Part shown: positions 60,176-64,000 of the stretch, piece after piece
Layout of the letters: every line of letters begins with the position of its first letter
Numbering within the stretch: the stretch's first letter is position 1
Origin: Octopus sinensis
Taxonomy: Eukaryota
Direction of reading: 5' to 3'
Assembly (NCBI RefSeq): GCF_006345805.1
Contig: NC_043001.1
Coordinates: forward strand, 23,808,001 to 23,872,000
Length of the DNA stretch: 64,000 nt
The notes under the pieces: generated by a model
What the model saw: the letters and a program-made list of their open reading frames with translations, nothing else
What the model was told of the DNA's origin: nothing
Databases searched by the model: none
Program-made: the position numbers and the translations under genes

Positions 60176-60800
60176 CATATATACGACGGGCTTCTTTCAG
60201 TTTACGTCTACCAAATCCACTCACAAGGCATTGGTCGATCCGGGGCTATAGCAGAAGACACTTGCCCAAGGTGCCACGCAGTGGGACTGAACCCGGAACG
60301 ATGTGGTTGGTTAGCAAGCTACTTACCACACAGCCACTCCTGCGCCTATCTTAATATTCAATTACCAATCTTAAGAAGCTCGTATGATCACCTTGTAGAA
60401 ATACTCTCATGCTGCTTGTAAAATGAAGCTTTTTTACAAGTCCCCGAAGGTACAGTTTTTGTAAGTATTCATTGACCTCATCAGCTTTTGATCCTTTGGG
60501 GATAACTGGCAACCTTTGACGAAAATCTCCTGCAAGAAGAACTGTTATTCCTCACATGAGCGTGCTATTGTTTTTTATGTCTTGGAGGGTACGGTCAAGT
60601 GCCGCTAGAGCACCACGATGTGATATAGTGCACTCATCCCAGACAACGAGGCAAGTTTGTTGGAGATCTGTTGCCATTGCAGAATCTTTGGAAATGTTGC
60701 ACATTTGAGATTCTTTCATTGTAAGGTTTAGAAGGAGCTTGAACATGGAATGAACAGTTCTTCCCCCAATGGTGAAAGTAGCTGCAACACCAGAAGATGC
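59130..60800 (-). pseudogene. Helitron Rep/Hel PIF1-helicase remnant with 3' end
   Basis: ASSGVAAT..GGRTVHSMFKL, VWDECTI, LDRTLQDI, LLAGDFRQRLPVIP, ERATLAP, YPVEFLNTL.PSGMP.H.L.LK.G..VMLLRN, QFPIKL, FSHGQLYV. Degenerate hairpin+CTAG end near 59130. Confidence 0.9.
59921..60347 (-). mobile_element. SINE family B inserted in the Helitron helicase
   Basis: Consensus match; interrupts the PIF1 motifs. Confidence 0.88.
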
Positions 60801-61624
60801 AACACACACACATACACACACACACAAACACACACACACATACACACACACACATACACACACACATACACACACAAACACAAACAAACATATATGTATG
60901 CATGTATGTATGCATGTGTGTATTATACACACATACATGTAGGAGGTTTGTACTGTATGTAATGCAAAAATTGGCATAACTTTCTTTACAAACACGGGTC
61001 GTTCAAATTGCATGTATTGGTAGATTAACTCTTTCTCTAGAGTAAATTTTCTTTTTTCTTTTCTATTGCAGGTGAATAATAGGTTCTAAGTAGAAGCAAC
61101 GATGCCATCATTGAATTCTTGACAAAATAAGGTTACAAGACGTTTCGCATCTACTTGAAGGCTCCAGATTGTTTCCAAAAGCAATGTGCAGAGATAGATG
61201 AAGTTTAAAGTAATAGAAACCAACATTGAAGACAAACTACACAATCATCATCATCATTGTTCGACCGTGGTCGAGACAATGGAATTGTAAATTCCATAGT
61301 CTTTTCAAATGGCTAATGTGTGCACGCGCCACTACTACACACATTGGAAAGCATTGTACAACCAAGTACTAAAGAAGATCTTTCCTCCTCCATGAAACAA
61401 AGCTGTTCCCGCCGGACGTCAACCCAGTATTTCTAAGCTACGGACCGAGTGATTTATTGTAAGGTTATCTCCCTAGATAGATTGCCTTCACTACGGCTAA
61501 GGAGCCCTTTCTACCCCACAATGGAAGACCATCAGCTGTGATCTCGCGGGCAGACCAGTCACAATCTGTGGGCTTGCTGCACAACTAGTCTCTGGTCACA
61601 AAACCTTACAGATGGCAGGTGAAG

Positions 61625-62306
61625 ATTTTCGGTATCAAAAAATGTGTGCAAATTGGGTGCCTCAGTGTTTGACACCCGATTTGAAGGAGGAAGTTTTGCT
61701 CACCTATTCAAATCTGTCGGTAGTGATTGAAGGTAACGAAGATATGTTTCTTTCCTACCTTATAGAGGATGAAAGACGGATGTATCTATATAATTCGGGA
61801 ACGAAAGCTCATTTGATGAAATGGTGTCAGACTTGTTCTCCAAGACATACAAGAAGTTCAAGAGACAGCAATCGGCACAGAAGCCATAATAACAAAGGCA
61901 TCATTCGTCTTGATTTTCGGGAAAATGACTATACCGTGATCAACGAGCGATACACTAAGAAACTTAAAAAAGCCATTAAGAAGAAGAGAACGAACAATAA
62001 CCTGTAAATCATTCACATCCATGACCACATTGTGTCGTCTATGGCAACAAATCAAGCAATCAGAAAATGTACTGGTCAGTGATCCGTTATACGCACATGC
62101 CGGATCTGGCGTCCTTCTACTCCCGTCTGTTCGGTTCAATAAAGGACAAATTTTGGGGGACAAATATTTGATGACACAAAAGAATTGAACGTGGTTGTGA
62201 AGAAGTAGGTGCAACAGTGCGCGCCTGAATTTTTCAAAGAGGATTCAAGAAGATGTTTCAATGATAGCAAAAATGCATCGCTTGAGGTGAAGACCATGTT
62301 GAATAG
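61625..62306 (+). pseudogene. mariner transposase remnant
   Basis: YQKMCANWVPQCLT, YLYNSGTK..MKW, a PDLAPS-like segment and a C-terminal EFF..KCI..GDHVE-like end. Confidence 0.8.
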
Positions 62307-63254
62307 TGCCTTTTTTATTGAAGAAGATTTACTCTACCACTATGTGCTATTTGAGCGGCCTTTGTCTCTTAAAAAGAAATATATTCCCACTTTTGCATTA
62401 CTTTCGGTATAACCTTTACGCATATGTGTGTGCTCGCGAGCGCATGTGTATGTGTGAGTGTTACAAGATCGCGTGTCTTATAAAATCGGCTTCGTGAATA
62501 CCTGTTGTAAAAGAAATAAAAAACAAACTAATCAGGTACAAATTTAATCTCTGGAATCTCCCGGTATAAAACTTGTTAGCAGAAGAATCAGAGACATCCA
62601 ATATTATAGAGAATATAAAAACGCAATTCAGTTTCAGAGCTGTTCGTGTTAGTACAATATTGCTATCCGCTTCCTCTTTATGCACTCCGTTTCTTGGAAC
62701 CCTGTCCCATATAACAGAACATTCAATAGATCATTCTGACCGTTCTTCTCAATCTACCTTGCTATAAATTCGTCTTATGAGCAGTCACAGTTTAGATCCA
62801 ATCAATAATAATATTGTGTTTCGTTAGTTTAGGTGCTGAGCTCAATTCTTCCGCTGATGTGACATGATGGTTAAATGGGTAAAGTACTGGACGGTCAGCC
62901 GGTTGTTATTTTGATTCTAATTTCATCGAAGGTATTTTACTGTGTATTTATTTAGTCAGTGCACGTAATTCTATATTTATCAGTTCTCTGGATGCACATC
63001 CATAACCATACGTGCATACATACATAAATACAAATGACATACAAGTGTATACGTGTATCAAACACACACACACAAACATACACGTATATGTATAAATATG
63101 TATGTACGTACGTACCTACGTTCGTACGTATGTATGTATGTATGAATGCATGCATGCATGTATGTATGTATGTATGTATGTATGTATGCATGCATGCGGA
63201 AAATTAATATAGACAGCAGTTTGAAATGTTTTACCAAAAACGTAAACTATATAA

Positions 63255-63963
63255 CGTAAGGGGTATTAGCCAGCTGAATGTGGCTAGCCACTGGGGGGGG
63301 GGTTACTGATGCTTTTAGCCCCAGGCGATCAACGTCACCAGAAGGACTTTAGACACTATCTCAGTGTCCTTGTGTTATTTGCAAAGGGAGGTCATCCTCC
63401 CTCGAAGACCCGAGTACTACATACGGACTATAGTTTCAAGGTAATTGCCTCTCGTCAACGCATGGTAAGCACCGGTCTTCGATGAAGGAGTCCCCTTGCA
63501 AATAATATATAATGTTTTTCACAGTAACCACTGTCACTGATGTAGAAAAACTGTCTGAAAACAATAATAAATCTCTGAACGAGATATAAACAGTAACCGC
63601 TCGACAACGTAAGGGGTATTAGCCATCTGAATGTGGCTAGCCACTGGGGGTGGGAGGTGGGGTGTTACTGATGCTTTTAGCCCCAGGCGATCAACGTCAC
63701 CAGAAGGACTTTAGACAGTATCTCAGTGTCCTTGTGTTATAGTCCGTATGTAGTACTCGGGTCTTCGAGGTAGGATGACCTCCCTTTGCAAATAACACAA
63801 GGACACTGAGATAGTGTCTAAAGTCCTTCTGGTGACGTTGATCGCCTGGGGCTAAAAGCATCAGTAACACCCCCCCCCCCAGTGGCTAGCCACATTCAGA
63901 TGGCTAATACCCCTTACGTTGTCGAGCGGTTACTGTTTATATCTCGTTCAGAGATCTATTATT
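63255..63963 (-). mobile_element. retrozyme/Penelope-like non-autonomous element: about 1.4 tandem 353-nt units plus an inverted segment
   Basis: Unit starts at 63253 and 63606. Inverted segment 63738-63963. Direct flank gtaaactatataa at 63242-63254 and 63964-63976. Confidence 0.85.
63421..63463 (-). ncRNA. type I hammerhead ribozyme motif
   Basis: atgcg-TTGACGA-gagg(caatta)cctt-GAAAC(tata)GTC-cgtat: all three stems pair, GUC triplet, U3 core variant, palindromic stem III. Confidence 0.75.
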
Positions 63964-64000
63964 GTAAACTATATAATTGTAACTAAATGTGACTAAGTTG

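Follow-up and report, generated by a model that had tools for sequence, protein, structure and literature searches.

A non-coding hammerhead repeat of Octopus sinensis with Penelope-type insertion ends

The window, a 64,000-nt stretch of Octopus sinensis contig NC_043001.1, contains near its right end a copy of a non-coding, hammerhead-bearing repeat with a 353-nt unit, which is likely a non-LTR retrozyme copied in trans by a Penelope-like enzyme from an RNA longer than one unit, with both nicked strands primed. We observed a large family, a covarying hammerhead and rod, two fixed 3′ ends with one arm per end, AT-rich targets, and a target duplication tied to the presence of two arms. Both outer ends of the window copy are fixed Penelope-type start sites, which an earlier sequence-only reading had missed.

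Anatomy of the window copy and its hammerhead

Upon re-check, all coordinates of the sequence-only reading held. The insertion is bounded by the 13-bp direct repeat it had described, at 63242-63254 and 63964-63976 on the plus strand; the last 1-2 nt of the left duplication overlap the element's start site 1, and the first 2 nt of the right one overlap the end of its tail. The host flanks (63195-63254 and 63964-64000) are part of an older repeat with dispersed copies (242 candidates at ∼90% identity over 50 nt), whose paralogs carry the 13-bp site in single copy. Since the left flank joins the right flank directly, with one uninterrupted copy of the site, in 11 of 14 paralogous loci, the window copy is an insertion with a true target duplication. 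A search for the empty allele of the locus in four DNA-type sequencing runs gave no exact match, only paralog-like joints with other letters between.

Positions within the unit are numbered along the RNA strand, starting at the first core base. The direct arm (63255-63740, minus strand) extends from fixed 3′ site 1 (+204 to +206) to +81 and includes one full 353-nt unit at 63255-63607 on the minus strand. Its units start 353 nt apart, and the arm spans 477 unit positions, or 1.35 units, in keeping with the ∼1.4 tandem copies first proposed. The inverted arm, which the earlier reading had recognized as a 226-bp copy, occupies 63738-63963/65 on the plus strand, 63963 being the last position before the right duplication. 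It extends from fixed 3′ site 2 (+251, the tail end) to +27 inside loop III, reading through the cut site by 7 nt before it ends. Thus oriented, the insertion has site 1 on its left and site 2 on its right, and the arms meet head to head at a 3-nt TAT microhomology (63738-63740). The tail, ∼47 nt between the two start sites (63559-63607, minus strand), is the best-conserved part of the unit across subfamilies (88-100%). Conserved minus-strand hairpins lie just 5′ of site 1 (63267-63286; helix 8, 96% paired) and just 5′ of site 2 (63571-63585; helix 9, 93% paired), both free of two-sided changes, and a predicted 7-bp long-range stem around site 1 (63591-63670, minus strand; helix 7, with 63670-64 pairing to 63597-91) is 96% paired and includes one pair with a two-sided change. 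The whole unit of the window copy folds with z = −6.57, and the interrupted rod that extends stem I (63375-63505, minus strand) folds as previously described (z = −7.07, 0/200 shuffles). No open reading frame of at least 120 aa was found over the 353-nt unit, whose length lies within the 150-450 nt expected of non-LTR retrozymes.

The type I hammerhead lies at 63420-63464 on the minus strand, with its predicted cut after C 63426, the C17 of the motif. Stem I is 6 bp long (CAUGCG/CGUAUG, 63464-59 with 63425-20), the core UUGACGA (63458-52) sets U3 opposite G8, stem II (63451-48/63441-38) sets G10.1 opposite U11.1 and is followed by GAAA, and the palindromic stem III is ACUAUAGU at 63434-27. The motif had been called a complete minus-strand type I hammerhead; its fold, coordinates and cut position stand, but the core is non-canonical, and the U3.G8 and G10.1.U11.1 wobbles had gone unnoticed. 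Although the helices have the sizes of Rfam RF00163 (Hammerhead_1), the Rfam search that had been suggested as a check returned no hammerhead match for the window at E up to 10. Sister family C aligns over all 45 positions of that model with 32.2 bits (E 3.9e-6), below the gathering score of 34.

The wobbles are shared within the lineage: among 50 near-window cores, which come from 30 loci and include a few duplicates, U3 was found in all 50 and both G8 and U11.1 in 48. A canonical core (C3-G8 or U3-A8, with G10.1-C11.1) is lacking in the window copy and present in sister subfamilies. Core constraint within the window lineage was not significant in a test of low power (0/18 versus 18/282 columns with a shared variant, P 0.32, using 56 insertions not picked on the core; P 0.10 with all 73 insertions). 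For the stem III segment of the window, we calculated −7.2 kcal/mol for the self-duplex versus +2.9 for the hairpin. A 3-8 wobble slows hammerhead cutting. We lean slightly towards the prediction that the U3.G8/G10.1.U11.1 core of the window cuts slowly and only as a dimer, the alternative being that it is inactive. In the accessible parts of PMC4209133, a self-complementary loop III is the mark of dimer-dependent cutting and U3-A8 is also reported, and the portion of PMC7151607 at hand mentions natural U3/G8 cores and slower natural variants. A literature search combining hammerhead core-pair terms returned no paper.

Only one complete hammerhead was found in the window using a model built from the family. 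With one ribozyme, the locus could not release unit-length RNA and is likely a dead end; it therefore also falls outside the active copies as defined by two ribozymes in the available text of 10.64898/2026.07.22.740005. Unlike the window locus, loci such as L006, L023 and L221 carry two consecutive complete ribozymes.

Further to the left in the window, a PIF1-like helicase fragment (60555-61085, minus strand; Pfam PF05970, E 3e-19) is probably a Helitron remnant interrupted by microsatellites. Two overlapping frames at 61501-62244, of which the one scanned gave no Pfam match, resemble what we take to be a decayed mariner-type transposase.

The family and its covarying structure

As anticipated from the window alone, the unit belongs to a young, non-coding, multi-copy family. 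Searching its own genome (2.72 Gb) yielded 2,531 candidates, 40 of which were scored, and the full units among these 40 were 95-98% identical. Pattern searches, whose totals count motifs and not insertions, gave 402 matches to exact 15-mers over the cut site versus 3 for controls, and 1,018, 793 and 311 matches to the relaxed, canonical CUGA(C/U)GA and window-type core patterns, respectively, with 0 for controls in each case. A hand count of the first 100 of the 1,018 relaxed matches gave 52 cores of type U3-A8/C11.1, 33 of U3.G8/U11.1, 10 of U3.G8/C11.1, 3 of U3-A8/U11.1 and 2 of C3.A8.

The fetched subfamilies show 70-98% identity with units of 353-360 nt, and sisters overall are 69-98% alike with units of 350-370 nt. 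An older sister family gave 3,274 candidates. The young sister C is 69% like the window family; its unit is likewise 353 nt long, and its arms reach 7 units. Its copies (L197-L226, L247-L296) have a canonical core, are 95-100% identical and lie nearly always in (TA)n. A distant family of ∼370 nt (L157, L159, L160, L166, L167, L170-L176) has the U3-A8 core and stem II in common; its insertions likewise have two starts and an inverted arm, and its palindromic loop III is 2 nt long.

Comparison across subfamilies revealed covariation in stems I and II, in the 3-8 pair, in the rod and in the palindromic stem III. This had been posed as a check on the hammerhead, and 10 of its 15 pairs change on both sides in 24 related representatives, hand-picked at one or two per subfamily (0/500 shuffles, a figure that is not a probability because the alignment rows are related). 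In these representatives 96.6% of cells pair, and the 3-8 pair is found in 24/24 as UA (10), CG (9) or UG (5). Loop III varies as UAUA, UCGA, CG, UA, UGCA, CGCG, CCGG or a wobble version and stays self-complementary throughout. In 14 whole units, the rod and three 3′ stems are conserved, with two-sided changes at 21 of 51 pairs of a structure derived from the same alignment. A midpoint-rooted tree, made with 42 of the 46 loci asked, places U3.G8 on two separate branches and shows C3-G8 recurring inside the U3-A8 clade. The tree is ladder-like in the window lineage, which may reflect recombination, and so it was used only for the recurrence of core states. Family contigs are present in four sequencing runs guessed to be RNA, and contigs cannot show circles or levels; among the runs containing the family, none is on record as RNA.

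Insertion ends, template and rival explanations

We examined the insertion footprint in 74 distinct window-family and 35 distinct sister-C insertions drawn from the best BLAST matches and from motif matches, a set that is consequently biased to long, core-bearing copies. These insertions carry Penelope-type ends, that is, two fixed 3′ starts ∼47 nt apart, AT-rich targets and an inverted arm. The start of an arm lies at +204 (+207 in C) or between +247 and +256, and its other end falls anywhere; the fixed ends are common to two families that are only 69% alike. Two head-to-head arms were seen in 41/74 window-family and 19/35 sister-C insertions, and 32 of the 74 window-family insertions are single-armed. 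Once two-armed insertions with an end elsewhere were set aside (6 in the window family and 3 in sister C), one arm per start site was found in 33/35 (P 1.7e-8) and 16/16 (P 1.5e-5), respectively, and none of those with both ends fixed combines site 1 with site 1. By raw counts, (TA)n lies on both flanks in 19/35 and 16/16 of these. Outside (TA)n, a duplication of at least 9 bp accompanies 9/16 two-armed versus 0/34 one-armed insertions (P 5e-6), with lengths of 9-16 bp, mostly 12-13. Dispersed insertions with duplications longer than 4 bp and without an LTR layout, by which retrozymes are recognized, thus occur in the family. Units join units directly, up to 7 in a row, and no insertion has a poly(A) end. 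The connection to retrozymes and Penelope-like elements drawn in the sequence-only reading is supported by the two fixed 3′ ends, the inverted truncated arm, the one-sided tail and the AT-rich targets.

In the explanation that we prefer, a Penelope RT/GIY-YIG protein, probably a dimer, would make a staggered cut of ∼12 bp and bind the conserved 3′ hairpin domain of the retrozyme RNA. Site 1 would serve to extend one nick and site 2 the other, both over random distances, and the two cDNAs would be joined at microhomology. Tandem transcripts may form dimers via the palindromic stem III, be cut in that state and then be ligated into circles, and by analogy with other retrozymes we somewhat favor these circles as the template. 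We regard as rather doubtful a bolder version in which one Penelope dimer on a single circular retrozyme RNA, its active sites at the starts 47 nt apart, extends both nicks at once, the window lineage uses a deliberately slow wobble core, and the site-specific LINE described below is a third-level parasite. If true, the dimer on a circle would account in one step for three traits of Penelope insertions: inverted arm, one-sided tail and target duplication. Several observations count against the preferred explanation: the window's own ribozyme has no Rfam match, core constraint in its lineage is not significant, and no autonomous partner was found among 35 GIY-YIG loci. From the accessible parts of PMC11167929, ribozyme mutants also did not lower Penelope insertion in vitro, and cutting failed in 8 of 9 dimers of frog retrozymes according to the available text of 10.64898/2026.07.22.740005.

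The proposal that the template exceeded one unit is supported. It had also been suggested that the inversion junction marks self-cleavage, as with a cut linear RNA template. While the TAT overlap and its distance of 7 nt from the cut site are confirmed, arm ends are not enriched there: 3 versus 1.2 expected fall at +31 to +37 in 55 window-family arms, picked by the motif next to site 1, and 1 versus 0.8 in 40 sister-C arms. Hence we attribute the +27 end in the window to chance. Window-family arms pass the cut site 48 times and end at +32 to +36 twice. The window template was intact or re-ligated at the cut site.

Two other routes to inverted arms were considered. Fold-back self-priming, proposed for Penelope in PMC3846280 as far as its available text goes, is rejected for the window locus because neither arm lies within the other; the same holds for 15/33 window-family insertions, the window included, and for 7/16 in sister C. 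Literature searching found no relevant published account of twin priming with inverted arms in Penelope-like elements. L1-type twin priming gives non-overlapping arms, and it was rejected since the arms here overlap in sequence.

Divergence within insertions bears on the source of the two arms. In the window family, divergence is 2.10% between opposite arms, 2.10% between tandem units and 5.16% between different insertions; in sister C, the values are 1.09%, 1.02% and 2.05%, respectively. As opposite arms differ no more than tandem units do, both arms usually come from one source. However, of 218 differences within insertions of the window family, 55 involve alleles that both recur in other insertions, 41 of these lying outside CpG and some being linked (in L100, L245 and L006), versus 4/68 such differences in sister C. 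A single monomeric circle does not explain these mixed alleles without recurrent mutation, template switching or conversion. In L006, L026, L100 and L245, subfamily-diagnostic alleles differ between pieces of a single insertion, which suggests a switch of template, mixed multimers or conversion. A circular template is plausible, and DNA alone cannot decide between a circle and a linear multimer.

The closest rival shares the family and the Penelope enzyme and overlaps the preferred explanation in all but the template, which would be an uncut, linear, multimeric read-through transcript, the ribozyme being dispensable or decaying in the window lineage. We hold this to be possible without favoring it. 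It would accommodate the free passage of arms across the cut site, the double wobble in 48/50 cores near the window copy and the mixed haplotypes inside some insertions, and unprocessed RNA was the main in vitro substrate in the accessible parts of PMC11167929. It sits less well with sister C, where arms reach 7 units with only 4/68 differences of the shared type, and with the continued compensation in the palindromic stem III and the 3-8 pair, including U3.G8 on two branches and the return of C3-G8 on one. Circles are moreover made by other retrozymes (PMC7229834, available portion). An unlikely alternative is that the copies are what remains of an autonomous Penelope-like element's terminal repeat after 5′ truncation. 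Their end anatomy equals that of Penelope insertions, and frog retrozymes are related to Penelope terminal repeats in the accessible text of 10.64898/2026.07.22.740005, but the direct joins of unit to unit, up to 7 times, refute this reading for the bulk of copies. In addition, in the loci tested no arm runs on into a Penelope frame, matches there being separate neighboring fragments, and the hammerheads of the Penelope families seen are different, minimal ones that lie ∼75-150 nt from the element ends. Least credible, and in our judgment very improbable, is a SINE-like repeat mobilized by a LINE, through L1-type twin priming or fold-back, or else a DNA transposon with terminal inverted repeats. 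Inverted ends with a target duplication and a LINE found repeatedly inside sister units speak for such an origin; against it, arms overlap and vary freely in length, 32/74 insertions are one-armed, the two ends are different fixed sites without poly(A), fold-back is impossible for the window, and the LINE is a passenger, as it sits inside the unit with its own duplication. Membership in a DNA transposon, named at the outset as grounds for abandoning the retrozyme reading, is largely refuted by the freely varying arms and the two different fixed ends.

Penelope-like elements, a LINE in sister units and known systems

The genome contains 5,029 GIY-YIG candidates, including RT plus GIY-YIG frames of 775-883 aa. 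We searched for a Penelope partner by a GIY-YIG family search, end inspection and a unit profile, and among 35 GIY-YIG loci (150 of the 5,029 candidates scored) none shares the end of the unit; the profile found separate retrozyme insertions only. Likewise, a shared-flank screen beside the arms gave no common body beyond host repeats, and in the loci tested no RT plus GIY-YIG reading frame lies between terminal repeats as in an autonomous Penelope. Same-strand matches ∼5 kb apart were considered as a Penelope body and rejected, since they flank a LINE and not a Penelope frame. Young Penelope-like families (for instance L062:4040-6688, L063:3245-5569 and further frames of 781 aa) encode an RT, a zinc-finger linker and GIY-YIG in frames of 775-883 aa and carry minimal hammerheads near their 3′ ends, with U3-A8 in the L035-L062 family.

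The LINE in sister units is ∼5.3 kb long with endonuclease, RT and zf-RVT domains, and from this domain order we presume that it belongs to the Tx1 clade. At its 3′ end, retrozyme sequence from position −27 was found in 17/30 loci and in 17/19 of the best 3′-end matches, some of which are segmental duplicates. Among 14 LINE loci retrieved with wide flanks, retrozyme sequence adjoins the 3′ junction in 13. In 7 loci it flanks both sides of the LINE, with a ∼17-20 bp duplication; 5 loci are 5′-truncated, lack retrozyme upstream and have their outer end at site 1 or 2, which would fit re-copying of the composites by the Penelope route. The LINE strikes at least four host subfamilies, and its insertion point is constant, immediately 5′ of the hammerhead core (L277-L279 at G000:C1:81.88-82.16 Mb, L163, L327-L339). 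A sister subfamily of the same LINE (L316-L326, G000:C28 ∼4.4-5.5 Mb) forms a cluster on a single contig arm, and the shared sequence that follows it is a different one, perhaps a second specific target. An Atlas search with the LINE RT returned generic RT clusters only. Tx1-clade LINEs target other repeats, and the arrangement resembles Tx1L in Tx1D, Keno and crocodilian Tx1-Mar in the available text of PMC4494074: an APE-RT-zf-RVT LINE of ∼5.3 kb that enters another repeat at one fixed position and is flanked by a ∼17-20 bp duplication. Unlike in those cases, the LINE here targets the rod immediately 5′ of a retrozyme hammerhead.

Our searches found no published account of this family, of a one-arm-per-start count or of a LINE targeting retrozymes in the open literature, supplements and Repbase apart, nor of such repeats in the titles and abstract openings of the octopus hammerhead literature. 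The one-sided tail of Penelope insertions is already known qualitatively. Since the kind of element is also known, the value of the family is mechanistic and not categorical. A protein-free family shows the full Penelope insertion footprint in a sample of more than 100 insertions. The rule of one arm per start, together with the tie between two arms and duplication, leads to a direct in vitro test of how Penelope inverted and tail structures arise, and the superfamily offers C3-G8, U3-A8 and U3.G8 cores as a natural series built on a single scaffold.

Metazoan non-LTR retrozymes of coral, mussel and axolotl (Cervera and de la Peña 2020, PMC7229834; Li, Clavereau and Pollet 2026, 10.64898/2026.07.22.740005; both as far as available) likewise have a ∼350-nt non-coding tandem unit, a type I hammerhead with a short palindromic stem III, a rod-rich fold, duplications longer than 4 bp and co-existing Penelope-like elements. 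They differ from the window lineage in lacking its U3.G8 and G10.1.U11.1 wobbles, and from the octopus family in that the latter consists mostly of dispersed 1-3-unit insertions with an inverted arm. The accessible parts of both sources argue for Penelope mobilization of animal retrozymes from co-occurrence and terminal-repeat similarity, and do not describe fixed start sites, a tail or inverted arms for retrozymes.

These features have counterparts in endonuclease-bearing Penelope-like elements, described here from the available portions of each source. Two internal starts bounding a tail, AT-rich cutting and both-strand extension by a predicted dimer are reported in PMC11167929, the inverted truncated arm and one-sided tail in 10.1101/2021.04.23.441226, and trans mobilization via Penelope terminal repeats in PMC3846280. 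Like Poseidon of the green anole (PMC11167929), rotifer Penelope (PMC3846280) and Naiad/Chlamys with the non-autonomous MRC1 (10.1101/2021.04.23.441226), the octopus family shows partial tandems, an inverted 5′-truncated arm, a tail at one end, two RT starts, AT-rich or microsatellite targets, duplications of ∼8-16 bp, a hammerhead 5′ of the starts and mobilization in trans, this last probable for the octopus family. Unlike them, it has no open reading frame, a tail of ∼47 nt versus their 30-40, starts 170 and 220 nt after the cut site, and a full-size rather than minimal hammerhead. The retrozyme works like a Penelope terminal repeat turned independent element.
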